Shown here: one piece after another, positions 5,048-53,467 of the stretch
How the letters are laid out: each line of letters opens with the position of its first letter
How positions within the stretch are numbered: position 1 is the first letter of the stretch
From: Microgenomates group bacterium Gr01-1014_5
Lineage (GTDB): Bacteria > Patescibacteriota > Microgenomatia > UBA8517 > UBA10165
Assembly: GCA_007376395.1 (NCBI GenBank)
Contig: VMGE01000004.1
Span: 6,431-70,430 of the forward strand
Length of the DNA: 64,000 bases
Direction: 5' to 3'
The notes under the pieces: model-generated
The model's database searches: none
Seen by the model: the letters and a program-made list of their open reading frames with translations, nothing else
Told to the model about the DNA's origin: nothing
Program-made: the position numbers and the translations under genes

Positions 5048-5368
5048 TTATTGTGGAGTATTTGTATCAGGTAATGGTTCGTTGACCATTAAATCGCCTT
5101 CAACATTCCATTTGTCATAATCCTCGCGGCATAATATTGGACTAGTGGCAGTTTGCGGATCATAAGAAGTAACAATATCTTTCCCGCATTTAGAACACTT
5201 AGCTCGGTAAAGTTTTCGTCCTCCACGAAGCTCCAAACGTCTCGCTTGGCGGCATTCAGGGCATTGAGAGGGAGTTGGTAAGTTCTTTTCGCGTAGAAAC
5301 TGTTGTTCTTGGTCAATGACCAAAAACTGTTTTGTACACTTTGCGCAAGTCTGTGTTATAGCGGCCAT
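5048..5368 (-). CDS. zinc-ribbon protein
   Basis: Three CxxC pairs (CAKC, CPEC, CSKC). 1-nt gap to the downstream Cys-rich gene on the same strand, so a likely operon. Confidence 0.45.
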   Translation of the reverse strand: MAAITQTCAKCTKQFLVIDQEQQFLREKNLPTPSQCPECRQARRLELRGGRKLYRAKCSKCGKDIVTSYDPQTATSPILCREDYDKWNVEGDLMVNEPLPDTNTPQ

Positions 5369-6013
5369 TTTATGATGTGATTACAGAATAATGTATGGAT
5401 TTGCGAATGTAAAGTAATTTCGACCTTGACAGGGGCTGCTGCACTCATGTTAAAGTTAATTTTAGAATGACTCCGGGCGGTAAAGAAGCAATTCTTCCCA
5501 AAACCATCCTTTCTCTTGCTCCCGATATATACACCCCTGACCACGATACACCACAGGTGAGAATAGCTTGGGCTGGCGGCAGTTTTCTTATTGCTGTTAG
5601 ACACAGTTGCCCAGAGTATTGTGAGCCAAGCAGTCCCAAGTGTAGCGGAGTGGTAGTTGTTCCTGTAGCGTCAAGGGATATCGGTGATAAAAAGCGTTTT
5701 TGCGATAATTGCCAACAAGAGGTGCTTGTTAAAGGTGTCGGAGGGTTACGGATTGAAGCTGCTTCTATTCTTCAAGCCATGCAGAAAAACAGACTATAGA
5801 GAGTAATTTTGCATTCTTCTTGCCGGTTTGCTAAAATACTTACGTTTACACACATTCGGCCTGTAATGGTTCCTGCAGAGCGATCTGTTAATCCCCAGGA
5901 CGAATGGAGGCAAAAAGGAACCTTTTAAGTAATAAGTAACAAGCGAAAAGTAAGAAGTTAAATCGCTTTAGAGAATTCTTGTTACTTGTTGCTTATCACT
6001 TTTTACTATCATT

Positions 6014-35210: not shown

Positions 35211-35233
35211 GTTTAAGGCGCCCCCTTAAACAA
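35211..35233 (+). repeat. 21-bp hairpin GTTTAAGG-CGCCC-CCTTAAAC, left copy flanking the 618-aa gene
   Basis: Near-identical copy at 37131-37153. Confidence 0.7.
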
Positions 35234-35271: not shown

Positions 35272-37128
35272 ATGAGTGAAAATGGCGAATCTGGCTCAAT
35301 ACCAAAAACTACTCCACCTTTTATTCGAGAATTTTCAAAAGTTAACAGTAAAGATGACCGCCTCGCTCTTGCACAGGAATTGAGAGCAAAACGGGCAGAA
35401 TATTTTGAGAGAAAAAGTTCTTTAACACAAAAATCATCAGAGGTTGCAATCAACATAGAGCAAACAGGAGAGCAGAAAAAAGCTGCTTTGGAAAATTTAG
35501 GAAACACACTTGAGGCAATCAATTCACTTCCAAGCCGCTGGTACGATAAGGTTTTAAATCTGTATAGAATTGTCAAATTAAATGCTCAAAAAGGAACCGA
35601 AAGTAGAGTTGCCAGTGAATTGCAAAAAGCAGAAGAGAGCCTGAATGAAGAGGAAAGTAAAATTGAAAAAGAGCTTAAAATACCTGGAAAAGATTTGGAA
35701 TTGGGAGAGGCTCGGCGCATGCTTGCTGGTTTTTACGAGAGACAAACCAAGCTTTGGCAGGAAGCGCCAATTGATCCAAAAGATCTCGAATATCTGCACG
35801 AATCTTATTTATCAAAACTAAATTTAGATCAATATATAACTTTGTTAAAAAAGTTTCCTTCCCGATTTTTAACACATGTAACAAGGCAGGGAATTAGGGA
35901 TCATATATCCCACCACGCGGTTCATCATGGCGATTTTATTGACGGTTTTGTTGATATTTTAAAAGCAGGAAAGCTTGATTCGGTTGTGAGCCAAATATTT
36001 AGAAACGGATTAAAAGATGAAGCAGTTGCAGAATTTTTAGGTCTTGAGAGGTACAAAAAATATGAAGAAGAAAGTTTAAAAAGACAATATGCGGATGAGC
36101 AGATGATGGGAGTTTATATTAGGAATATGGGTACTGAGCCTGCTATGCAATTTGTTAAGAAGAAGGTAAGAGACGAAACATTGAGCTCAGTTATACAAAA
36201 TCCTAATTCGCCTAGAATTTTTAGAGACAAGTCGTCTATACATTTCGCGTTTGACTGGGTTGCGGATTGTTATTATGGAGGTGAATCGGGAAACGAAATA
36301 TTTTTTGCGCTTCCTGCTGTATATGCGGCTTCAGAGTTGGGGTTAACAAGCGGTATTTCAAGAGAAAAAGAAACATATGAAAATTTTTCAAGAGTAGAAG
36401 CCGATGGTTGGAATGATGTTTGGGTTAATGGCGTCAAAAACGGAATAAACATTAATACTGCCATAGTTTTTATTCCGGCAAATACTCAAGTAGATAGAAA
36501 TACAGGTTCGCAATATGAATTGGATGAGAATTTAAAACCGGTTGAAAATAGCGAGCTGATAAACGAGGTTGTTAAACTCATGCGCAGGCCGGATATAGTT
36601 GATTATGCAAAAAAAAGCTTGCTTGCACATACTGCAGATTATGAAAAAGTGTCAGACCTAGAAGAATTAACCGGACTTAAAAGTGATTTGCTTTACATTG
36701 TTGCTAGAAATTTATCTACTGTAAGATTTCTTGACGAATTAGAATCACGCGACCCTTCAATTGATCCAGGGGGCGGCAAACAAAACTATATAAACAATGG
36801 CGGCGCATATAATGAGGTGAGGAAGATGCTATCCCAAGGCGGATATAATTTTAAGCTAAGCTCTGACACAATTTCTTCAAAAGATTATTGGGAAGACTTT
36901 TTTGCCAAAAATCCGAACCTGAAGCCAACAAAAATTGTTTATTACAGAGGTAGTCCTGAACGGGCTTTGGATGAATTTTACAAAAATAACGGGCTAGGGA
37001 CGGGGGACGCAGGTAAATTTTCCAATGTTGAAAAAGGTAAATTAAACGATCAGGAAATAAACGACGACTATAAAAGATTTATGGATATCGCCAAGGGAGT
37101 TATTGAGCGGTATTTTGCAGACAATTAA
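35272..37128 (+). CDS. large hypothetical protein (618 aa)
   Basis: Long ORF with coiled-coil N-terminus. Bracketed by two near-identical hairpins. Confidence 0.5.
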   Translation: MSENGESGSIPKTTPPFIREFSKVNSKDDRLALAQELRAKRAEYFERKSSLTQKSSEVAINIEQTGEQKKAALENLGNTLEAINSLPSRWYDKVLNLYRIVKLNAQKGTESRVASELQKAEESLNEEESKIEKELKIPGKDLELGEARRMLAGFYERQTKLWQEAPIDPKDLEYLHESYLSKLNLDQYITLLKKFPSRFLTHVTRQGIRDHISHHAVHHGDFIDGFVDILKAGKLDSVVSQIFRNGLKDEAVAEFLGLERYKKYEEESLKRQYADEQMMGVYIRNMGTEPAMQFVKKKVRDETLSSVIQNPNSPRIFRDKSSIHFAFDWVADCYYGGESGNEIFFALPAVYAASELGLTSGISREKETYENFSRVEADGWNDVWVNGVKNGININTAIVFIPANTQVDRNTGSQYELDENLKPVENSELINEVVKLMRRPDIVDYAKKSLLAHTADYEKVSDLEELTGLKSDLLYIVARNLSTVRFLDELESRDPSIDPGGGKQNYINNGGAYNEVRKMLSQGGYNFKLSSDTISSKDYWEDFFAKNPNLKPTKIVYYRGSPERALDEFYKNNGLGTGDAGKFSNVEKGKLNDQEINDDYKRFMDIAKGVIERYFADN

Positions 37129-37130
37129 CT

Positions 37131-37153
37131 ATTTAAGGCGTCCCCTTAAACAG
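37131..37153 (+). repeat. 21-bp hairpin TTTAAGG-CGTCC-CCTTAAAC, right copy, 4 nt after the stop codon
   Basis: 20/21 identity to 35211-35233. Confidence 0.7.
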
Positions 37154-44760: not shown

Positions 44761-45069
44761 ATGAGTCTAAAAGTTGGGATAGTAGGTTTGCCAAATGTTG
44801 GGAAAAGCACGTTGTTTAACGCACTCTTAAAAAAACAACAGGCATATGTTGCGAATTTTCCGTTTGCTACCATTGAGCCGAATGTCGGTATTGTTCCGGT
44901 TCCTGACGCAAGGCTGGATGAATTGGCGCGAGTTGTCATGGCCTCTGAAAACATGGGAAGCGTACCACCTAAAGTTCCCGCAACCGTAGAGTTTGTTGAT
45001 ATCGCAGGCCTAATTGCCGGCGCACACAAAGGCGAAGGTTTGGGTAATAAATTTTTAACTCTAAATTAA
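44761..45069 (+). pseudogene. ychF: 5' fragment of a divergent ychF copy (encodes residues 1-98)
   Basis: [23 protein letters not shown]...[14 protein letters not shown] is about 80-85% nucleotide-identical to the start of full-length ychF at 47862. Similarity ends near 45055, followed by TLN*. Confidence 0.75.
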
Positions 45070-45095
45070 TTAGCTTTTATATTAAACAAAATTAT

Positions 45096-45338
45096 AGTGT
45101 CCTTGGAATTGATGGTGGGATAAATTTTACTACTGATCTGATTGATAAACTACCCTTTCCAGACTTTAACCCAAAAGACACAAAAAATAGAATTATTGAG
45201 TTAACTAATAATATTTTGAATTCTAAAGTTGAAGGTAAGGTAAAAATATTCAAATCTCAGATTGATGAATTGATTTACAAACTCTACGGCCTCACGTCGG
45301 AAGAAATTGCAATTGTGGAAAATTCAAATAATAAATAA
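45096..45338 (+). pseudogene. 3' remnant of an N6-adenine DNA methyltransferase (type IIG/BREX-like) gene
   Basis: Frame without a start codon encodes ...IDELIYKLYGLTSEEIAIVENSNNK*, the characteristic C-terminal LYGLTxEEIxxIE motif. Confidence 0.5.
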
Positions 45339-45343
45339 TTTTT

Positions 45344-45691
45344 ATGTCAAACAAATATGGCATTTCTGAAAAAGAATTAATAAAGATTAGGGAAAGAGAC
45401 AAGACTTGTGTGTATTGTCACAAAGTAATGATCGATCCTAGATCAAGGGGTAGGCGAATCGATTGGGCGACAATTGAACATTTAAACTTTATGCCCCCAT
45501 GGAACAACGCTTCTACTGTTGCAATCTGCTGTTGGAGTTGTAACTCAAGTCGTGGTAGCAAGAAATTGTTGGATTGGTTTAAAGGAGAATATTGTTTGAT
45601 TAAGAAAATAAATGAAAAGACTGTAGCCAAGCCCGTCAGAGAATTTATCAAAGTTCAAGTAAAATCGGTATTGACAATATTATCGAATTAG
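45344..45691 (+). CDS. HNH-type nuclease
   Basis: CVYCHK...IEHL...CCWSCNSSRG Cys/His pattern. Confidence 0.5.
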   Translation: MSNKYGISEKELIKIRERDKTCVYCHKVMIDPRSRGRRIDWATIEHLNFMPPWNNASTVAICCWSCNSSRGSKKLLDWFKGEYCLIKKINEKTVAKPVREFIKVQVKSVLTILSN

Positions 45692-45727
45692 TGTAATATC
45701 GATAACAAGGAAATACTAATTATCGAT

Positions 45728-46912
45728 ATGAATATTATTAATAATCGAGCAGGTATATACAAAAAAATCTTATCAGGGAATATTGCATACAAAGCATTTG
45801 TTCCTAATTTTTTGCCACTCTATCCGTCAATAAAGATGGATGACACGATTCAAATGCTATTATCTAACGCGGATAGAGCGATAGGTGGCCTTAATATAGT
45901 TACCGAACTATTGCCGGATTCAGATTATTTTATCCTTTCGTATTTAAGAAAAGAAGCTACTTTATCAAGCCAAATTGAAGGTACAAAAGCTACCTTTATT
46001 GATGTTGCTAAAGCAGAGGCAGGAGAGATAGATAGAGAAACTCCTCAGGATTACCCTGAAATCGTTAATTATATTAATGCTATAAATTATGGACTAAAAA
46101 GAATTCGTGAAGATGATTTTCCTATGGCATTACGTTTACTTAGAGAGATTCATGAAAGAATTTTAAAAGAAGTTCGTGGTCAATATAAAACTCCGGGAGA
46201 ATTTAGAAAATCACAAAATTGGATTGGCGGTGCATCTATCAACACAGCATCATATATACCTCCAACGGCTGAGGATATGAACGCAGCACTAGATAACTTG
46301 GAAAATTTTATGAACGACAAAAAACCAATGCCCGTACTAATTAGAATAGGATTAATTCATTCACAGTTCGAAACAATTCATCCCTTTTTAGATGGAAATG
46401 GTAGAGTTGGAAGACTCATGATTACTTTATTGTTATGCCATTATGGTTTGTTACCAAAACCAGCCCTTTATTTATCAGAGTATTTCAAAGCTTTTAGGAA
46501 TGAGTATTACGATAGATTAAACGCTGTACACGAAAAGGGAGATTTTGAAGGTTGGTTAAAATACTTTTTAGAAGGTGTTTGGTTGGTTGCAGAAGAGGCT
46601 ACAAGTACAGCTATGAAAATTAAAGCTTTAAAGGATAGAGATATTATGAAACTATCGGGTTTAAGCGCTCAAACTTCGCGTAATGCGATTAAATTACTTG
46701 AGAATTTATTTAGTAGCCCTATCATGACAGTGAAAGACGTTTCAAAATACACAGGATTGTCTTATGCTAACGCAAATAACCTTGTTAAAAAGTTAATAGA
46801 TTTAAAAATACTAGAACCTCTTGTTGAAAGAAAAAGGAACAGAGTTTTTGCTTATTCTGAGTATATGAACCTATTTAAAAATAGAGAATCTTATAAAAGA
46901 CAATTAAACTAA
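45728..46912 (+). CDS. Fic-family protein with C-terminal winged helix
   Basis: HPFLDGNGRVGRLM Fic motif. Upstream inhibitory-helix-like region. Confidence 0.85.
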   Translation: MNIINNRAGIYKKILSGNIAYKAFVPNFLPLYPSIKMDDTIQMLLSNADRAIGGLNIVTELLPDSDYFILSYLRKEATLSSQIEGTKATFIDVAKAEAGEIDRETPQDYPEIVNYINAINYGLKRIREDDFPMALRLLREIHERILKEVRGQYKTPGEFRKSQNWIGGASINTASYIPPTAEDMNAALDNLENFMNDKKPMPVLIRIGLIHSQFETIHPFLDGNGRVGRLMITLLLCHYGLLPKPALYLSEYFKAFRNEYYDRLNAVHEKGDFEGWLKYFLEGVWLVAEEATSTAMKIKALKDRDIMKLSGLSAQTSRNAIKLLENLFSSPIMTVKDVSKYTGLSYANANNLVKKLIDLKILEPLVERKRNRVFAYSEYMNLFKNRESYKRQLN

Positions 46913-46967
46913 TATGTCTAAATATTACCCTCCAAACAGAACACAGGAAGATATTTAGCTTCATAAC

Positions 46968-47003
46968 TGATAAAATACTCAAATGTCATTAAAAGTTGGG
47001 ATA
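46968..47003 (+). repeat. 36-nt copy of the ychF upstream region plus first 7 codons (att-like direct repeat)
   Basis: TGATAAAATACTCAAATGTCATTAAAAGTTGGGATA against TGATAGAATGATCAAATGTCATTAAAAGTAGGAATA at 47847-47882, 31/36 identical. Confidence 0.7.
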
Positions 47004-47143
47004 CGCCACACGCTATCCTATCTTTAGACTTCAGCTTCAAATTCTCACTTCCTGATCCTAAAAAGCAAAGGATTATTCTTCAGAGAGACGCTAAAGGTCG
47101 AATTTTACATTCAACTACTCAAACCTAAGCTTTTTGTCTAGTC

Positions 47144-47818
47144 TTATTCTGATATTTTCCAACGTTCTGTATCAACTAAAATTATTTTTGGTTGTTCGCT
47201 GGTGATTATGTATCCAAAATTGTCAGTATCAAAAACTCCCACTTCGTGTAATTTATCGACGATTTCATTATATTCCTTTTCCCAACTGGTTCCCCTCATT
47301 TCAAAACGGGGAGAATTTGATAGAGTTGGATAATATCTATATATCATATAGTTCTTTGTTGAATTAGCATCAGTATAATAAGCTAGTAATTGCTCTACTG
47401 GCAAATCTTCAGAATAGGCTTGCTTATAGCGTTTACTGGCTTCATTGACGATTCTAATTTGAGCTAATGGAATATTTGCCTCTAAGCGTCTCTTATACCA
47501 AGGTTCCCCTTTTTCGTTGTGGACGTCATAAGTAGAATATGCCATCTCTTTCACTAGAATTTCTGTATTACCAATTGAAAACTTTTCTACTCTCCTGGTT
47601 GATTTGCTTATTTCTTCTCCACCCTTATTTTTCCAATTAAGTGGAATTCCATTTTTTCGCCAAGGTGTTTCTGCTAATAATAGTTCCTGAAAATCTGCAG
47701 ATAAATCAGGTGGAAGAGATTTTAATACGAATAGATGTCCATCAGTGAATTTGACCCTTTCGAAATGAGGCCACTGAATCGTTGGAGTTGTATTATCGAC
47801 ACCCTCTGACATAATCAC
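47144..47818 (-). CDS. hypothetical protein (224 aa), cargo of the segment bounded by the 36-nt repeats
   Basis: ORF only. Possible kinase-like ILVDTERW. Confidence 0.4.
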   Translation of the reverse strand: MIMSEGVDNTTPTIQWPHFERVKFTDGHLFVLKSLPPDLSADFQELLLAETPWRKNGIPLNWKNKGGEEISKSTRRVEKFSIGNTEILVKEMAYSTYDVHNEKGEPWYKRRLEANIPLAQIRIVNEASKRYKQAYSEDLPVEQLLAYYTDANSTKNYMIYRYYPTLSNSPRFEMRGTSWEKEYNEIVDKLHEVGVFDTDNFGYIITSEQPKIILVDTERWKISE

Positions 47819-47861
47819 AATTATATATTAAATAATTGTGAAAATTTGATAGAATGATCAA

Positions 47862-48866
47862 ATGTCATTAAAAGTAGGAATAGTCGGTTTGCCAAATGTA
47901 GGGAAAAGCACATTGTTTAACGCTCTTCTAAAAAGGCAACAGGCATATGTTGCGAATTTTCCGTTTGCTACCATTGAGCCGAATGTAGGCATTGTTCCGG
48001 TTCCAGACAGTCGGCTCGACAAGCTCGCCGAGGTGATTAGTGATTCTTGGATAGTGAATGGTGAGAAGAAAAAACCACCCATTGTCCCCGCAACTGTAGA
48101 ATTTGTAGATATCGCAGGGTTAATTGCCGGAGCTTCCAAGGGCGAAGGGCTGGGGAATAAGTTCTTATCCCATATCCGCGAAGTTGACGCAATTTGCCAT
48201 GTTATCCGGCATTTCAAAGATAAAAATATTATTCAAACAGGAACTAATCCCAAAGAGGACTTTGAGATTGTCAAAACCGAATTAGATTTGGCAGACTATG
48301 AAATGGAAGAACAGCACAAAGAAAGAAATAAAGGAAAGGTTGACGAAAACCTACCCCTCTTTAAGAAGAAACCGATTTTAGTTGTGCTTAACGTTGACGA
48401 AGAGGATTTAATAAACGCAAAGAATATCGAGGCTGGGTTTGCGACTTCTGTGGGGCTTAATAAAGAGCAGGTGATTGCAATTTGTGCTAAAACTGAAGCG
48501 GAATTGGCGGATCTTTCAGAAGACGAACAAAAGGAATATTTAAGTGACTTGCGAATTGACAAACCGGGTTTGGAAAGGCTGGCGCAAAGCGCTTTTACCA
48601 CCCTTGGTTTAATTACGTTTTTAACCGCAGGAGAAAAGGAAGTGCGGGCTTGGACCATTCGGCGAGGTGCGACGGCTCTAGAGGCTTCCGGGGAAATCCA
48701 CACCGACTTTATGGCTAAGTTTATTAAAGCGGAAGTTGTGAAGTATGAGGATTTTGTAAATTCAGGAGGATGGAAGAAATCCCGCGATGTCGGTAAAGCC
48801 AGACTTGAAGGCAGAGATTATATCGTCCAAGACGGTGATGTGGTTGAATTTAAGATTGGCGCTTAG
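47862..48866 (+). CDS. ychF: ribosome-binding ATPase YchF (Obg-family GTPase)
   Basis: G1 [16 protein letters not shown]-terminal TGS domain (KARLEGRDYIVQDGDVVEF). Confidence 0.9.
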   Translation: MSLKVGIVGLPNVGKSTLFNALLKRQQAYVANFPFATIEPNVGIVPVPDSRLDKLAEVISDSWIVNGEKKKPPIVPATVEFVDIAGLIAGASKGEGLGNKFLSHIREVDAICHVIRHFKDKNIIQTGTNPKEDFEIVKTELDLADYEMEEQHKERNKGKVDENLPLFKKKPILVVLNVDEEDLINAKNIEAGFATSVGLNKEQVIAICAKTEAELADLSEDEQKEYLSDLRIDKPGLERLAQSAFTTLGLITFLTAGEKEVRAWTIRRGATALEASGEIHTDFMAKFIKAEVVKYEDFVNSGGWKKSRDVGKARLEGRDYIVQDGDVVEFKIGA

Positions 48867-48881
48867 TATAGTTAACTTGTT

Positions 48882-51116
48882 ATGCCAGAACCATCTGCCG
48901 ATACTCCGCAATTATCATTAAGAGACAGGCTCGAGAGAATTTTCCATAAACCAATGACGCGGAGAGAGGTTGTTGCCGCCGGAGCCGGGGCGGGTTTAAG
49001 TTTAATCGCAACAGGAGTTATTGGAGTCCCCAAATTTCTACAAATGGAGGCAAGCCTAGAAACTTCCCGGAAGGAAACAAACGAAGCAAGGGCAGGATTG
49101 GAAGAGGCTAAGGATCGGGTTGAAAAAGCTCAAGATCGGGCTCAACAAGCTCAGGAAGAAACAGCAGTTCTGCAAAAAGACTTGGAAAAAGTCAATCTTT
49201 CTGAGGAGAGAGCCAGGATTGTAGCTGATCAGGCCAAAATTGAGAAAATTGAGTCAGAAAAAGAGCGGGGTCTTGCATTAGAAGAAATGTCGAGATTATT
49301 CGTTAAAGATTATGATCAAAATGTAAAAGCATCAAATACATTGGTTGATACATATGTTTATGCTCAAGAGGTAAGAAAGTCGGGTGGTAATGCCAGTTCT
49401 TCAGGATTGGAATTGCGAATAGCCTTTGAAAGGGCATGGTTAATTCTTGAAAGAGGGGTTGCCTTGACTTCAGCTTGGCAAAGGCTAAAAGGGGAGAAGA
49501 ATCCTGTGGGTTTTGATAAAGACGGCAGATTGATAATTGAAGGAAAAAAACTGCAGGTTAACGAAGATGTGTGTGATTATCACCTAGCACTAAACCTTTT
49601 AAGGGCAAAAATAGATTTAGCAAGTAACAACGACTCTGACAAGCGGGCTTTGGCAGATGAAGATATTCAAAATCTCTTGCGTTTTATTGACATTCGTCCG
49701 AAAGTTGATATTGAAAAAACAGCATGGGCAGTTATGCCGCCTGACTGGGCAGGGGCTCTTGCGCGTTTTACGATCTTTTTAGACGAACGGAGAATTCCAC
49801 CACCCCAACTATATAGAATTTATCGCGATGTCCTCCTGGACGGGAGCCGATCCGGTGGGGGATTTTACGTCGGCGGTAAAGAGAAGTTCCCGCAGGCATC
49901 TCAGTTTTTACAATTGGGATCCCGTATGGATGCAACTGTTGTTTTCCACGAAGGGGGGCATTATATTGCTGACGCCTCTTCAATAAAAGAGAGATTAATT
50001 GGGGCCGGACGATTACAGGGGCATGCTGATTATCAGCGAGACTTTGATAGTCTGACAGCTAGAATGCAGAAAACTCTATTGTCTGCGGCTCGGAAGTCGG
50101 GAAAAAATTTAGGGGTATGGATGTCCAAAAGCTTTGTGAGCGCGTATGCCAGTTCCAATACAGCAGAAGATTTTGCGGAAACGTTTCGTGAGTTTTTAGG
50201 TTATGGCCCAGCTTTTAGAGAGAAGATAGAAAACCTGCGTAAAGAAGACCCTATTGCCGCATCTCTGCTTGAGGTTAAGTATGAATTTATGCGTGTTAAT
50301 GTGGCTCAGGGTGTTGAATATGGCATGAATGGTAGAAAAGCGGGTGCGCCTTTACTTTTTGAAGATAAAGAAAAGATAAAGGGTCGTAATAGTAAGTTAA
50401 ACTCACTTGCCTCATTACTTGAAGAAACGGGCAAGAGGTTTACAGAATATCTCTCCAGAGAGTCTGCTTTTAAAAATGCACAAGGTAAACTTGTGATACC
50501 GGAGTCTGATTTTGACCTTGATACCGCTCTGCTTGAGCCTAGAATTTGGAACGATATTATTGATTCGTTCAGAGGAGAAGTGATAGATGTATCTTCGGTT
50601 GTTCCTGTTCCTCATTATGAATTTCAAGGGGTAGCAGATATTGCCGTTAAATTAAAAAATGATAAAACAGTACGTTTAATTTTGGACACAAGAATCTCGG
50701 AAAGCGCCCAAAGTCTTATAAAATTAATTCCTGAATTTACAGACAAAGAGATCATTAAAACAAGAATGGTAAACAATGACCGCGGCCGTTTTTCTCAGGA
50801 GAGTTTGGATTATTTTAAGGCGCAAGGAGTTAAAAGCCCTCATGTTGCCTTTTCCGGAATATGGGAATCTTCTTATCCTCCAAGCCATGTCGACCGAGAA
50901 GGTGTGTTGTTTGTAAGATTTCAATATGAAAACGGGGAGTGGAAGCAAAAGCCGCTGGATGTACGCAGGACGAACCTTTTTATTAAGTCTGTGGCAGATG
51001 GGAAAGAAGAGGTTAGATCTTCCGGATATCACACTATAACTTTAGGAGAGAAAGATATCCTTTTTGGGTTTAATATAGACGGAAATCTTCGTGAGGTAAG
51101 AACCCACAATATTTAA
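48882..51116 (+). CDS. large hypothetical protein with twin-arginine-like N-terminus and an HExxH motif
   Basis: MTRREVVAAGAGAGLSLIATG signal-like segment. Coiled-coil. VVFHEGGHYIADA (HExxH) with a downstream AEDFAETFREF segment. Confidence 0.45.
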   Translation: MPEPSADTPQLSLRDRLERIFHKPMTRREVVAAGAGAGLSLIATGVIGVPKFLQMEASLETSRKETNEARAGLEEAKDRVEKAQDRAQQAQEETAVLQKDLEKVNLSEERARIVADQAKIEKIESEKERGLALEEMSRLFVKDYDQNVKASNTLVDTYVYAQEVRKSGGNASSSGLELRIAFERAWLILERGVALTSAWQRLKGEKNPVGFDKDGRLIIEGKKLQVNEDVCDYHLALNLLRAKIDLASNNDSDKRALADEDIQNLLRFIDIRPKVDIEKTAWAVMPPDWAGALARFTIFLDERRIPPPQLYRIYRDVLLDGSRSGGGFYVGGKEKFPQASQFLQLGSRMDATVVFHEGGHYIADASSIKERLIGAGRLQGHADYQRDFDSLTARMQKTLLSAARKSGKNLGVWMSKSFVSAYASSNTAEDFAETFREFLGYGPAFREKIENLRKEDPIAASLLEVKYEFMRVNVAQGVEYGMNGRKAGAPLLFEDKEKIKGRNSKLNSLASLLEETGKRFTEYLSRESAFKNAQGKLVIPESDFDLDTALLEPRIWNDIIDSFRGEVIDVSSVVPVPHYEFQGVADIAVKLKNDKTVRLILDTRISESAQSLIKLIPEFTDKEIIKTRMVNNDRGRFSQESLDYFKAQGVKSPHVAFSGIWESSYPPSHVDREGVLFVRFQYENGEWKQKPLDVRRTNLFIKSVADGKEEVRSSGYHTITLGEKDILFGFNIDGNLREVRTHNI

Positions 51117-51130
51117 AGAGAGTAATACAG

Positions 51131-51145
51131 CTTGCTAACCAGCCT
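51131..51145 (+). repeat. 15-bp direct repeat CTTGCTAACCAGCCT, left, overlapping the Fic stop codon
   Basis: 14/15 match to 52171-52185. Confidence 0.55.
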
Positions 51146-52109
51146 GGTAGTAAACACCTCTCGTCGTGCCTAGTTTTCGAATTAGCCGCTGGTCGGCTAA
51201 CTTTTTTAAGTCATAGCGTAAGGTTCTATCATTTACTTTGCTAAATCTTCTTTTAATTTGGTCAAAATTTACTAGCTTTTGCTCTTTTACGATGTTTAAA
51301 ATCTCTGCACGCCTAGGGAGTAAATAGTCTTCAGGGGTTAAATCTTTCTTTTTTAAGACTTGATCTTTTGCTTTATTTGCGCTCTCGGCTATTGCTTCAA
51401 GCATAAATTCGACATAATCTGTAACATCCTTTTGGCCTTCAGAGAGCATCGTATAGTATGTGCTTCTGTATTTATCGAGGTATTCCTCTATAGCTAAAAG
51501 CCCTTTCATTCCATAACCGCTCTTTTGTAAAGATAATTGGATTAATAATCTTCCGACCCTGCCATTTCCATCTAAAAAGGGGTGGATTTTTTCAAAAGAG
51601 TAATGGGCAAGTACAGCTCTAATTGGTACAAATTGTTCCTTTGGGCTGTTGGCAAACTTTATAAGCTTTTTTAGTAATCCTGGGATTTGTCTAGGAGGTG
51701 GCGGTATGTACACTGCAATACCGGCGGAGTTAAAAATAGCACTTACCTCGGTTCTGAATTTTCCGGGTGTATCGGTAAGTTTCAACATTGTGATTTTATG
51801 CATATCTAGAACGATACTTTGGGTAATATCGCGGAGCCCTTGTTTCTGAACCTTATTTAAGGCTTTTAAGATGTTAAACACTTCTTGCCTTTTTTGATCA
51901 GTTGAAGTTTTTCCTAACTCTTCAATTGTGAGCGGATTCCCCTCAATTCTTGCTGAAAAAAGGGAACTTTTTAACGTAGATTGGCGCCGGATATTGGTCT
52001 CTACTTCTGGTGGAATATTGATGGAGTCAATAACTTGTTTTGCAGCTTCAATTTGGCTTAATAACTCTGAAATTTTTGGGGTATGGATATACTTTGGAGG
52101 AATTAGCAT
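51135..52109 (-). CDS. Fic-family protein (second copy)
   Basis: IHPFLDGNGRVGRLLIQ motif. C-terminal wHTH. Confidence 0.8.
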   Translation of the reverse strand: MLIPPKYIHTPKISELLSQIEAAKQVIDSINIPPEVETNIRRQSTLKSSLFSARIEGNPLTIEELGKTSTDQKRQEVFNILKALNKVQKQGLRDITQSIVLDMHKITMLKLTDTPGKFRTEVSAIFNSAGIAVYIPPPPRQIPGLLKKLIKFANSPKEQFVPIRAVLAHYSFEKIHPFLDGNGRVGRLLIQLSLQKSGYGMKGLLAIEEYLDKYRSTYYTMLSEGQKDVTDYVEFMLEAIAESANKAKDQVLKKKDLTPEDYLLPRRAEILNIVKEQKLVNFDQIKRRFSKVNDRTLRYDLKKLADQRLIRKLGTTRGVYYQAG

Positions 52110-52170
52110 GATTTACCAGATATTACCAAATATATCCTAATATTACCAGATGTTACCCAAAATTCCGATT

Positions 52171-52185
52171 CTTGCTAGCCAGCCT
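52171..52185 (+). repeat. 15-bp direct repeat CTTGCTAGCCAGCCT, right
   Basis: See the left copy. Together they bracket the Fic gene and its promoter. Confidence 0.55.
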
Positions 52186-52209
52186 CGGAATTGGTATACT
52201 TCCATTTAG

Positions 52210-52629
52210 ATGAATACTTACGAATTAACAATTGTTTTGGCGGGTTCCATGACAGAGCCGAAGCAAAAGGCAGTTTTGGATAAAATTAAGAAAGCCGTTG
52301 CCGATTCTGGAGGTAAAGTCGACAAAGAAGATAGTTGGGGCAAAAAGCAATTTGCTTATCCTATAAAACACGAAAAAGAAGGCTATTATTTTTTCTTCGA
52401 GCTTACACTTCCTCCTGACCATGCCAACGGGATCAAGCGTTTAATTGAAAACGATGAACAAGTGGCGCGCCACCTCTTGATAGTAAAACGTGACAAGGTA
52501 CAAGTAACAAGTTCCAAGAAGGTAGAAACTCCGAATAGTGCAAGCACAGTAGCGCCAGAAACAGAAAAACAGAGTGTTGATAAAGAGAAAAAAGTGGTAA
52601 AATCTAAAAGGAAAGCAAGGAAAAAATAA
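52210..52629 (+). CDS. rpsF: 30S ribosomal protein S6
   Basis: MNTYELTIVL...YFFFEL. Basic tail. Confidence 0.9.
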   Translation: MNTYELTIVLAGSMTEPKQKAVLDKIKKAVADSGGKVDKEDSWGKKQFAYPIKHEKEGYYFFFELTLPPDHANGIKRLIENDEQVARHLLIVKRDKVQVTSSKKVETPNSASTVAPETEKQSVDKEKKVVKSKRKARKK

Positions 52630-53132
52630 TGGCGTCACGTTCTTTAAACAAAGTAATACTCATTGGTAATTTAACCCGGGATCCGGAATTGCGCTACACT
52701 CCTCAAGGAACCGCTGTTTGTACTTTCGGCCTTGCTACAAACCGTTCTTGGAAAACTGAAGATGGAACACAAAGGGAACAAACCGAATTCCACACAATTG
52801 TTACCTGGACCAGGCTTGCAGAAATTGTAGCTGAGTATTTAACCAAAGGTAAGCAGGCATACGTTGAAGGTCGTCTTTCAACCCGCGAGTGGGAAGGTCA
52901 AGATGGACAAAAAAGGCGCACGACAGAAATTATAGCCACAGAAGTTATTTTCTTAGGGTCACCGGGCGCGCGACCTGAGTCAATAGACGTTCCAGAGGAC
53001 TTGGGGATTAACGAGCAAAAGCCAGAAACAGAAACAGAGCCAGATACAGAGAAAGGGACAAAAGAAAAACCCGCAACTAAAACCAAAACTGAAGAAACAC
53101 CAGTTGTTGAAGGGGAAGATATTCCTTTCTAG
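52629..53132 (+). CDS. ssb: single-stranded DNA-binding protein
   Basis: LNKVILIGNLTRDPELRYTPQG OB fold. C-terminal acidic DIPF. Confidence 0.9.
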   Translation: MASRSLNKVILIGNLTRDPELRYTPQGTAVCTFGLATNRSWKTEDGTQREQTEFHTIVTWTRLAEIVAEYLTKGKQAYVEGRLSTREWEGQDGQKRRTTEIIATEVIFLGSPGARPESIDVPEDLGINEQKPETETEPDTEKGTKEKPATKTKTEETPVVEGEDIPF

Positions 53133-53203
53133 AGGCTAGAGAGCTGGAGGCTAGAGGTTAGATTCTAGCCTCTAATCTCTAATTATCTAGTAATCTAATT
53201 TTT
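53133..53203 (+). repeat. CTAGAGA/CTGGAGG heptamer-related repeat plus 8-bp-stem hairpin (AGGCTAGA..TCTAGCCT) and TAATCT repeats abutting the rpsR ATG
   Basis: Read directly. Confidence 0.7.
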
Positions 53204-53467
53204 ATGGCCAAGAAAAAAGACAAAGATAAAAACCGACCGCAAAGAGAAAAGCGCAAACCAGTGAACGAGGTTTGTCCTTTTTGTGAATCGCACAGGGCTC
53301 CTGATTACAAGGATGCGGTAAACTTAGACAGGTTTGTCAGTGAGCGCAGGAAAATTTGGAGCAGGGCGCGAAGCGGAGTTTGCGCCAAACATCAAAGGGC
53401 ACTTTCCCGGGAAATTAAACGGGCACGCCATTTAGCCCTACTTCCCTTCTCGCAAACTCCGTATTAA
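53204..53467 (+). CDS. rpsR: 30S ribosomal protein S18
   Basis: CPFCE...DYKDAVNLDRFVSERRKI. Confidence 0.9.
   Translation: MAKKKDKDKNRPQREKRKPVNEVCPFCESHRAPDYKDAVNLDRFVSERRKIWSRARSGVCAKHQRALSREIKRARHLALLPFSQTPY

Follow-up and report, generated by a model that had tools for sequence, protein, structure and literature searches.

SoFic, a Fic AMPylase, constitutes a single-gene anti-phage defence and is represented in PADLOC as PDLC03963 (PMC12249575). In CbFic2 of Coxiella burnetii, furthermore, Fic is combined with a helix-turn-helix (HTH) at the C terminus, and DNA binding switches the protein between AMPylation and deAMPylation; its abstract describes CbFic2 as a secreted effector on host histone H3 and names no tandem-repeat operator (PMC10628234). 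We compare with these systems a Fic gene located between ychF and rpsF in a 64-kb stretch of DNA (hereafter, the window) from a Microgenomates (CPR) MAG. The features of this region are as follows, in positions of the window.

47862–48866, plus strand: ychF, the left core anchor of a variable gap
48882–51116, plus strand: HExxH gene (Peptidase_Mx-like), 744 aa, the second variable gene of the gap
51131–51145, plus strand: left 15-mer, CTTGCTAACCAGCCT, interpreted as rpsF promoter sequence (−35 plus spacer) copied to a displaced position
51135–52109, minus strand: Fic gene, 324 aa, class II, SoFic-like, with a C-terminal winged-helix domain
52112–52161, no strand assigned: 10-bp tandem array of five units, TTTACCAGAT ATTACCAAAT ATATCCTAAT ATTACCAGAT GTTACCCAAA
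52162–52170, no strand assigned: junction filler, ATTCCGATT, 9 nt, from the array to the right 15-mer
52171–52185, plus strand: right 15-mer, CTTGCTAGCCAGCCT, composed of C followed by the −35 hexamer (TTGCTA) of the functional rpsF promoter and 8 bases from the start of its spacer
52172–52200, plus strand: rpsF promoter predicted by promoter scan, with −35 TTGCTA, a 17-nt spacer, −10 TATACT and a TG extension
52210–53467, plus strand: rpsF-ssb-rpsR, core genes anchoring the variable gap on its right

The Fic protein matched Pfam Fic (PF02661) with 71 bits against a cutoff of 24, and also HTH_DeoR weakly. Its catalytic motif, H176-PFLDGNGRVGR, fits HxFx(D/E)GNGRxxR, and an inhibitory motif, S52-A-R-I-E56-G57-N58, is located about 120 residues before H176; in an alignment of 28 sequences, H176, F178, D180, G181, G183 and R184-R187 of the former and S52, A53, R54, E56, G57 and N58 of the latter are invariant. 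The classification of Fic proteins that includes class II reportedly goes back to Engel et al. 2012. In class II, the protein itself contains a (S/T)xxxE(G/N) helix, placed N-terminal to the Fic core, and a separate antitoxin is unneeded; in toxin-antitoxin modules of the FicT/FicA or Doc/Phd type, by contrast, an adjacent antitoxin gene provides that helix. Because the SxxxEG motif of the window protein is in cis, no partner antitoxin, for which a sequence-only reading of this DNA had suggested a check, is expected; no small ORF adjoins the gene, which is monocistronic between the HExxH gene and rpsF.

As in SoFic, the window protein has HPFxDGNGRxxR and a C-terminal winged helix, and it fits the PADLOC SoFic model over nearly the full length (E = 7e-59, residues 9–321, i.e., 313 residues). 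Unlike SoFic, however, it lacks Fic_N (Pfam), which is found in the other Fic protein of the window (394 aa, 45728–46912), and its score against the NCBIfam SoFic equivalog NF046030 was 67.9 bits, for which the cutoff is 550. Like defence genes generally, the Fic gene is accessory between close strains and resides in a variable gap between core genes; unlike typical defence genes, it is conserved at 60–70% across the phylum, and synteny with ychF and rpsF is frequent. Judging from the sequence, we would regard the protein as SoFic-like with a putative role in defence. In terms of the Fic-wHTH family as a whole, the phylum-wide identity of 60–70% is above that of S6, S18, SSB and YchF, and yet the gene is replaceable between near-identical strains. 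CbFic2 is resembled in the arrangement of a Fic core followed by HTH, and one close database homologue of the window protein is named CoxFIC1 by its source, whereas the similarity to solved Fic-HTH structures is only remote; the best match to a solved structure was 4RGL (E = 8e-23). In the literature, we found no paper naming Fic together with Microgenomates or Patescibacteria.

A plausible DNA ligand for the HTH is the conserved array, which adjoins the Fic start codon and overlaps the predicted Fic promoter; a promoter-like site on the minus strand (GTAACA-16-TATATT) was noticed at 52156–52129. At least four units of the array are present upstream of Fic in 68 of 84 loci (shuffles, ≤2), where the 84 loci include four duplicate contigs of the window organism. 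The array is found upstream of Fic irrespective of the neighbouring genes, and nowhere else in the window do two or more units stand next to each other. We regard the array as a candidate for recognition by the Fic wHTH domain, as its operator or DNA ligand; our literature searches found no description of a 10-bp array with SoFic.

The sequence-only reading had described two 15-bp direct repeats at 51131–51145 and 52171–52185, and these are indeed identical at 14 of 15 positions. It had also placed them at the ends of Fic and its promoter region, the left one giving Fic its last codons and stop; the minus strand of the left 15-mer (CAG GCT GGT TAG) provides Q-A-G-stop, and the two copies bound the Fic ORF plus the conserved upstream array. 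The right copy is within the 100-bp gap between the starts of Fic (52109) and rpsF (52210), and no further copy with up to two mismatches occurs elsewhere in the window. By itself, nonetheless, the pair is statistically unremarkable, because 21 direct pairs of at least 14/15 at 300–3000 bp spacing exist in the window; it is the position and the comparative data that put it above chance. The inner edges of the repeats agree within about 15 nt with the limits of an anomalously divergent block, and the gene-bracketing pairs examined in the window (3 of the other 20) were all biological in origin.

The Fic block has a history separate from that of its flanks. When the window was compared with its closest Fic-bearing relative (L006; hereafter, relative B), identity at 4-fold sites was 27% in Fic, with dS saturated, versus 74, 69, 72, 64 and 64% in RpsF, SSB, RpsR, S41 and HtrA, respectively. 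The dS of the flanks was 0.46–0.78, and codons 603–744 of the HExxH gene exhibited 61–73% third-position identity at conserved codons, the core genes being at 69–80%.

Gain or loss of Fic is evident, furthermore, between near-identical strains. Strain L096 is 97% identical in nucleotides to the window in the rpsF region and mostly 95–100% identical in the 3' 760 nt of ychF, with two local dips to 70–80%, while the 5' 240 nt of ychF are foreign relative to this strain; neither of the two Fic genes of the window is present in this region of L096, whose flanks are 97–100% identical. L097, L100 and L101 are similar to L096, and in all four the ychF stop is followed by 38–42 nt and then CTTGCTAGCCAGCCTCGGAATTGGTATACTTCC..ATG(rpsF), without Fic and without the HExxH gene. 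No alignment of the window block with the 38/42-nt spacers of these empty alleles beat shuffles. The HExxH gene, which begins 15 nt past the ychF stop in the window, is missing from L096/L097 and most Microgenomates, and its protein alone as a query gave no matches in GTDB genomes. In L005, L045 and L089–91, the HExxH gene is on the opposite side of Fic (Fic-HExxH-rpsF), and a single rpsF −35 directly follows its stop. The order ychF-Fic-rpsF is conserved in 20 of 80 species. The ychF-rpsF gap is a hot spot of recombination, occupied in several alternative ways. As to the empty site joining the outer sides of the two repeats, for which the sequence-only reading had suggested a comparison with relatives, a single 15-mer is present in Fic-less relatives and a single −35 behind the HExxH stop in L005, L045 and L089–91; the block absent from the nearest Fic-less strain is HExxH plus Fic (3.3 kb) and not Fic alone.

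The right 15-mer is the native rpsF promoter. Together with CGGAATTGGTATACTTCC, it occurs once, upstream of rpsF, in the Fic-less L096, L097, L100 and L101; because the Fic-less alleles carry one copy, the right 15-mer corresponds to the target sequence, single-copy at the unoccupied site. Only 9 nt separate the −10 of this promoter from the rpsF ATG, and homologous promoters are found in L008 (TTGCGG-17-TATAAT), L005, L034 and L045. The rpsF promoter of relative B matches the 15-mer at 9/15 and differs at 6/15, so that the right-hand copy is not kept in every carrier; the 15 nt right of the repeat are 13/15 identical between the window and relative B. On the array side, the filler and A52161 make up AATTCCGA, the left arm of an inverted repeat (52161–52176 / 52177–52192, 13 of 16 pairs; DNA fold, z = −2.3), of which the right arm, TCGGAATT, is the promoter spacer; of the two arms, the left is lacking in relatives with an empty site. 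Because the window gave no matches in Rfam at the gathering threshold or in a tRNA scan, neither a known rpsF leader nor a tRNA target is indicated.

The left copy is best seen in comparison with relative B, in which a similar motif, CTTGCTAGCCAGACT, is 14 nt past the HExxH stop, exactly as the left 15-mer is in the window. This motif matches the left copy of the window at 13/15 and the right copy at 14/15, with the first 12 bases identical; namely, the 12-mer CTTGCTAGCCAG from the HExxH flank of relative B is identical in the rpsF promoter of the window, L096 and L097. L096, L097, L100 and L101 have the exact 12-mer solely as their own rpsF promoter, and among the other loci searched for it, it was found only in the contigs of the window organism and in relative B. 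The 15-mer at up to three mismatches is absent from L005 and L008. The 14 nt preceding the left copy are identical between the window and relative B at only 3/14 positions, and a match of 13/15 is above the expectation for a neutral relic at a dS of about 0.6, which hints at an unrecognised function or later recombination. As a live promoter the left 15-mer was rejected, because the window has no −10 suitably spaced from it, and as a hairpin or terminator it folded no better than shuffles. The left copy could in part (ACCAG..CTGG) consist of native Fic tail, for which L095 offers a parallel; the match would then be due to some extent to microhomology that guided the joint, and not to duplication.

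The array+Fic unit is recurrently bracketed by direct repeats, local and differing in sequence, in five other Microgenomates species:

L063: 53-nt repeat, ychF 3' end
L032: 49-nt repeat, ychF 3' end
L054: 32-nt repeat
L088: 23-nt repeat
L027: 23-nt repeat

In L063 and L032, a displaced copy of the ychF 3' end is on the far side of the insert. The copies of a repeat are 84–97% identical, and no sequence is common between species. Bracketing at ≥14/15 was detected at 8 of 77–78 Fic loci and at 1/78 after shuffling; among control genes, it was detected in 1/25 for ychF, 0/15 for S41 and 0/7 for HtrA, and the lone ychF case looks like a contig-edge artefact. Near the first Fic gene of the window, also, there are a truncated ychF 5' copy at 44761–45057 and a 24-nt copy at 46980; this gene is within an island bounded by ychF 5' duplicates, in agreement with the earlier suggestion that it is likewise repeat-bounded. 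The ychF-side duplicates appear to be scars of the same kind as the Fic repeats.

The unit has no mobility gene. In 51146–52170, the bracketed 1.03-kb segment, neither the ORF list nor Pfam contained a recombinase, transposase or integrase, the other ORFs being of at most 70 aa on the opposite strand inside Fic, and there is no inverted repeat joining the ends of the segment and no att-like core. The bracketing repeats of the six lineages, at 15, 23, 23, 32, 49 and 53 bp, exhibit no fixed duplication length. The proposal that Fic genes travel as small repeat-bounded cassettes accordingly is supported in what concerns the separate history, the Fic-less near-identical strain and the bracketing in other species; it is not in what concerns the repeats, which are target sequence (the rpsF promoter and ychF ends) and not element ends. 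In our best reading, nothing indicates that the Fic gene moves by itself, and the repeats are not a transposon-type target-site duplication. Tyrosine-integrase islands insert at the 3' ends of tRNA or protein genes, carry a replacement end and leave attL/attR direct repeats. Like them, the Fic unit is flanked by a direct repeat of target sequence, which is the ychF 3' end in L063 and L032; unlike them, it has no integrase, the sequence and length of the repeat differ by lineage, with the rpsF promoter used in the window and ychF ends or further intergenic stretches in the others, and the copies have diverged (84–97%).

We see about an even chance that the locus arose by import through host recombination, with homology on one side, an illegitimate joint on the other and the target duplicated. 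The stretch 51146–52170 would then be one functional module, a class II SoFic-like Fic AMPylase plus its array, that is horizontally exchanged among Microgenomates. A fragment bearing the array and a Fic gene whose 3' tail had been cut off past the YY codons would have been integrated by the host's own recombination. On its right, the join would have used homology in the rpsF promoter and operon, neighbours of Fic in many donors; on its left, the joint would have been illegitimate, directly past base 15 of the rpsF promoter of the recipient, a promoter then situated 14 nt behind the HExxH gene. The outcome would be two copies of the promoter start, of which the right still drives rpsF and the left is a dead relic that by chance gives Q-A-G-stop to the truncated Fic. 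The Fic tail is indeed YYQAG* in the window versus YYEPxxx* in orthologues, a truncation that points to an illegitimate joint at 51145/51146. In relative B, the last ~75 nt of ychF are present a second time, overlapping the Fic stop, and the left motif is fused to this copy via AGCCAG(N)CT microhomology; this junction probably represents a separate import of a ychF3'-Fic-array fragment.

Homology-facilitated illegitimate recombination takes place during natural transformation in Acinetobacter and Streptococcus pneumoniae. We infer this process, or an equivalent short-homology integration, together with the order of events and a recipient having only the HExxH gene. In likeness to it, a conserved flank would hold one junction, and the other would have had little or no homology to rely on (AGCCAG(N)CT in relative B, the truncated Fic tail in the window), with foreign DNA beside an anchor gene and no need of element-encoded functions. 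The difference is that the anchor is duplicated at the illegitimate joint, and that donor and recipient are reconstructed here; to our knowledge, duplication of the anchor sequence is not a textbook outcome in the Acinetobacter and pneumococcus studies, which counts against the import. The postulated recipient (ychF-HExxH-promoter-rpsF without Fic) and donor were not found among the relatives, and the 15 bases are short in a window with 20 other 14/15 pairs. Counting against the import, too, are the 6/15 differences in the rpsF promoter of relative B, the unexpectedly strong conservation of the left copy and the chance that part of that copy is native Fic tail.

A swap of gene order by tandem duplication and random loss is, in our estimation, unlikely. 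An ancestral ychF-Fic-HExxH-rpsF would have duplicated the stretch between the ychF 3' end and the rpsF −35 via AGCCAG microhomology and then lost the first Fic and the second HExxH gene, so that the left 15-mer would be the promoter start duplicated with the latter. The outgroups by relatedness, L005 and the L045 group, both have Fic-HExxH-rpsF, relative B has promoter-start sequence fused to the ychF 3' copy at AGCCAG, and no unseen Fic-less intermediate is required. Three events are required, however, and no relic of a second HExxH gene was detected in the 78-nt spacer of relative B, where no alignment beat shuffles. Also unexplained would be the synonymous saturation of Fic between the window and relative B with a flank dS of 0.5–0.8, and the repeat-bracketed Fic units in unrelated species without the HExxH gene.

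We strongly doubt that array and Fic are a non-autonomous mobile cassette, moved by a recombinase encoded elsewhere or by Fic-wHTH itself, with the array as cis site and the 15–53-bp repeats as true target-site duplications. The limits of the unit are alike in six lineages: in the cases inspected directly, no more than about 25 nt separate the start of the upstream repeat copy from the distal array end, and the downstream copy starts 4–32 nt past the Fic stop (overlapping the stop in the window); the array is upstream of Fic whatever the neighbours, and the unit is present or absent between near-identical strains. Nonetheless, the unit has neither terminal inverted repeats nor, at its opposite end, a second array, and the duplications are of 15–53 bp at unrelated targets; such variable lengths are unlike any transposase or integrase known to us. 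Two of the repeats, moreover, correspond to an end of the gene next to Fic in donor genomes, as homology-anchored import predicts, and the repeat copies are only 84–97% identical. As to the broader idea that the 1.0–1.2-kb array + Fic-wHTH unit is a recombinase-less mobile defence cassette of Microgenomates, we think it quite unlikely; the array would be more than an operator, namely a cis-acting end or a DNA-sensing ligand recognised by the Fic winged helix or a trans-acting factor, and the unit would insert repeatedly beside core genes with long and variable target duplications.

It is very improbable, too, that chance and microhomology suffice, i.e., that the left 15-mer consists of a −35-like CTTGC and otherwise mainly of native Fic 3' sequence, its resemblance to the promoter being a coincidence. 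The 21 comparable pairs in the window, the loose resemblance of the L095 Fic tail, CTAATTACCAGATGCTGG, to CTAACCAGCCTGG, and the match of only 9/15 in the promoter copy of relative B are in line with coincidence, but the exact 12-mer in the HExxH flank of relative B is not: this 12-mer is not Fic tail, because it is about 60 nt from the Fic stop. The position of the left motif also agrees with that of a real promoter behind the HExxH gene, the rpsF −35 (CTTGC...) being 21 nt past its stop in L005 and 6 nt in L045, and a biological origin of all three other gene-bracketing pairs examined further disfavours coincidence. Finally, the idea from ychF-Fic-rpsF synteny that Fic is simply resident and the HExxH gene alone is mobile was dropped, given the mosaic of synonymous-site divergence, the near-identical strain without Fic and the units in other species that are bracketed by repeats.

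If the import by host recombination is correct, the locus would illustrate, through alleles that are empty, occupied or rearranged, how single accessory genes are gained and lost in ultra-small CPR genomes without mobile-element machinery, each event leaving scars in which a short piece of a promoter or gene end is duplicated. This would help the annotation of CPR genomes in separating such scars from transposon footprints, and would flag the Fic-wHTH family as one that is conserved phylum-wide. The conserved five-unit array, by analogy with CbFic2, may then be a concrete candidate DNA ligand for a Fic enzyme of the kind regulated by DNA binding.

Two 15-mers bracketing the 324-aa Fic gene (51135-52109, minus strand), as the sequence-only reading had described, were recovered from the window sequence, in which the following features are placed:

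51131-51145, left 15-mer, CTTGCTAACCAGCCT
52112-52161, five tandem 10-bp units, directly upstream of and abutting the Fic start codon, consensus ATTNCC[A/T][A/G]AT
52161-52192, imperfect palindrome of 32 bp (13/16 pairs), centred between the GCT and AGC of the right 15-mer
52171-52185, right 15-mer, CTTGCTAGCCAGCCT, in the 100-bp gap before rpsF
52172-52200, predicted rpsF promoter TTGCTA-17-TATACT with a TG extension (promoter scan)

Indeed, the left 15-mer on the minus strand reads CAG GCT GGT TAG and supplies the final three codons and the stop of Fic, also as described. No third copy at two or fewer mismatches was found within the window, and the region is identical in four other contigs with the same Fic protein. 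Since 21 direct pairs with 14 or more of 15 bases matching occur in the window at 300-3000 bp spacing, nonetheless, the pair is unremarkable as a bare repeat, and the case for it depends on context.

In terms of that context, the right 15-mer is the rpsF promoter itself, as settled by the closest RpsF relatives. In L096, which was located like the other nearest Fic-less relatives through RpsF and is nearly identical to the window (RpsF, 98%; rpsF region, 97% in nucleotides; 760 nt of ychF 3' sequence, mostly 95-100%), 38 nt lie between ychF and CTTGCTAGCCAGCCTCGGAATTGGTATACTTCCATTTAGATG(rpsF); three further relatives (L097, L100, and L101; RpsF, 85%) are arranged in the same way but with a spacer of 42 nt. 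Fic and the 744-aa HExxH gene are both absent from these four, where the 15-mer is single-copy. The nearest Fic-less strain lacks HExxH and Fic together, and the variable block relative to it is HExxH plus Fic rather than Fic alone. At the insertion junction, the left arm of the palindrome, AATTCCGA, is specific to the window allele and absent from the empty-site relatives. Together with the final base of the array (A52161), a 9-nt filler at the right junction supplies 8 nt that repeat the neighbouring promoter spacer in inverted orientation, which is compatible with a repair-type joint. We also noticed that the rpsF -10 stands just 9 nt before the ATG in the window (52195-52212), so that the predicted mRNA would be nearly leaderless, unlike relative B (allele pieced together from L006 plus L008/L099), where a structured leader of ~85 nt precedes rpsF (L008 5275-5400).

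Relative B (Fic, HExxH, and S41 81%, 58%, and 95% identical to those of the window, respectively) carries CTTGCTAGCCAGACT at the same 14-nt offset past the HExxH stop as the left copy of the window. In L005 and the L045/L089-91 group, where the order is ychF-Fic-HExxH-rpsF, the real rpsF -35 (CTTGC...) lies 21 and 6 nt past the HExxH stop, respectively. Because of these offsets, the left 15-mer is best explained as the start of the promoter that formerly stood behind HExxH, present here as a displaced copy; the promoter scan gave no -10 at a usable distance from it, and no fold was found there. In relative B, the left motif is fused via a shared AGCCAG(N)CT to a repeat of the final ~75 nt of ychF that overlaps the stop of Fic; this ychF 3' repeat stands at both the start and the end of L006, and the copy is intact in L099 and frameshifted in L008. 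The window has neither this stretch nor the Fic tail usual in orthologues (YYEPxxx*), and its Fic ends in YYQAG* within the repeat.

At 4-fold-degenerate sites, window and relative B are 64-74% identical in rpsF, ssb, rpsR, S41, and htrA (dS 0.46-0.78) but only 27% identical in Fic, where dS is saturated from end to end; on these comparisons the Fic block has its own history, apart from its flanks. Furthermore, CGGAATTGGTATACT, just right of the right repeat, matches relative B at 13/15, whereas the repeat matches its promoter at only 9/15, which places the limits of the divergent block ~15 nt or less from the repeats. A swap of HExxH and Fic by tandem duplication and loss, to which the order in L005 might point, would not by itself give Fic this separate history and is considered rather unlikely; an origin of the left 15-mer by chance or microhomology alone, for which the many comparable pairs speak and its placement behind HExxH does not, is less probable still. 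HExxH itself is a mosaic against relative B: at third positions of conserved codons (core genes, 69-80% by the same measure), codons 1-100 and 603-744 are 61-79% identical and the middle mostly 33-54%. Amino acid identity at codons ~100-600 (49180-50690) is 30-70%, far below that of the two ends, a pattern pointing to a second tract of recombination or to diversifying selection.

The 10-bp array overlaps a promoter-like site for Fic (promoter scan), and at least four units were found upstream of Fic in 68 of 84 loci (Fic identities 47-81%; four duplicate contigs of the window organism included), with at most two units in shuffles. It accompanies Fic whatever the neighbouring genes (window and L005-L088), and nowhere else in the window do two or more units stand side by side; the repeat-bracketed unit is therefore array plus Fic. 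The array probably serves the winged helix of Fic as operator or DNA ligand; no description of it was found in the literature searched. When 77-78 orthologous loci were searched for direct repeats bracketing array plus Fic, eight had repeats matching at 14 or more of 15 positions; shuffling left one such locus, and flanking-gene controls gave 1/25 (apparently a contig-edge artefact), 0/15, and 0/7. Five of the eight are part of long repeats:

L063, 53 nt, 89% identity, ychF 3' end
L032, 49 nt, 84% identity, ychF 3' end
L054, 32 nt, 97% identity
L088, 23 nt, 91% identity
L027, 23 nt, 91% identity

In these five, the two copies lie immediately outside the unit, upstream past the array and downstream past the Fic stop, and the bracketing repeats are unrelated in sequence from species to species.

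Repeats were found on the ychF side as well:

44761-45057, truncated ychF 5' copy, 102 codons
46980-47003, 24-nt relic of the ychF start
47859-47882, live ychF start, third copy of the 5' end

These copies bound an island (~45058-48100) with an HNH-like ORF, the other Fic (45728-46912; a Fic_N-Fic-wHTH gene, PADLOC SoFic 383 bits), and orf224; the island, including the other Fic and orf224, is absent from L096. Over its first 240 nt, the live ychF is 55-83% identical to L096 and over most of the remainder 95-100%; the first part is foreign relative to this strain. L096 has its own ychF 5' relic (2668-2766; 33 codons, 94% identical) 2.1 kb upstream of ychF, which brackets a glycosyltransferase gene and an NYN-domain gene; the ychF start thus looks like a recurrent insertion point. 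In L097, a Blackburnbacteria relative, ychF (5076-5916) matches in two pieces (residues 3-116 and 199-334) with a called product of 131 aa and may be disrupted or frameshifted. Elsewhere in the window, a 21-nt hairpin motif, TTTAAGGCG(C/T)CCCCTTAAAC, flanks a 618-aa ORF (35272-37128) at 35212-35232 and 37132-37152 and probably represents a terminator-like element that recurs in intergenic positions.

Neither a recombinase gene nor terminal inverted repeats were found in the bracketed Fic segment, and the repeats on either side of it, 15 to 53 bp in length, derive from the target and often correspond to the end of the gene next to Fic in donor genomes; host-mediated integration of incoming DNA therefore fits the placement of array plus Fic. 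One side would be joined by homology (rpsF in the window, ychF in L063 and L032) and the opposite side illegitimately or by microhomology, with the few anchor bases beyond the joint becoming duplicated. Two points weaken this model: the HExxH-only recipient allele that it postulates was not found among the loci compared, and window and relative B agree more closely in the left 15-mer than would be expected of a relic evolving neutrally. Mobilisation of a cassette in trans, the array serving as the cis site, for which the constant company of array and Fic might argue, is improbable, the repeats differing between species. Host-mediated integration remains favoured, and the 15-mers are duplicated target sequence from recombination. 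The proposal that Fic genes here travel as repeat-bounded cassettes is supported in part: both Fic genes are accessory, horizontally exchanged, and repeat-bounded, but the repeats do not mark the termini of an element that moves by itself.

The 324-aa protein contains a Fic domain (71 bits) and a C-terminus with weak DeoR/winged-helix matches. Its canonical motif H176-PFLDGNGRVGR and, upstream in the same chain, the inhibitory S52-ARI-E56-G57, on which the sequence-only reading had suggested a check, are invariant across 28 homologues. By the established Fic classification, it is a class II, auto-inhibited Fic, for which no partner antitoxin is expected; none is encoded among the window ORFs. 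While the PADLOC SoFic defence model matches nearly its full length (E=7e-59), the protein differs from SoFic in having no Fic_N and falls far under the NCBIfam SoFic equivalog cutoff; the closest solved structures are 4RGL, followed by FICD and SoFic.

Across Microgenomates, the median identity to the window is 64% for Fic, compared with 54% (SSB), 49% (YchF), 48% (S18), and 37% (S6), and Fic exceeds S6, S18, SSB, YchF, and S41 from the same loci; it stays flat at 62-69% while YchF spans <45% to 85%. Between the closest relatives, Fic is less conserved than YchF, SSB, S18, and S6. It reaches 83-89% in pairs with YchF at 86-89%, but only 81% between window and relative B (S41, 95%). The order of ychF, convergent Fic, and divergent rpsF is seen at 20 of 80 GTDB species loci, and Fic is often syntenic yet replaceable or absent among close relatives.
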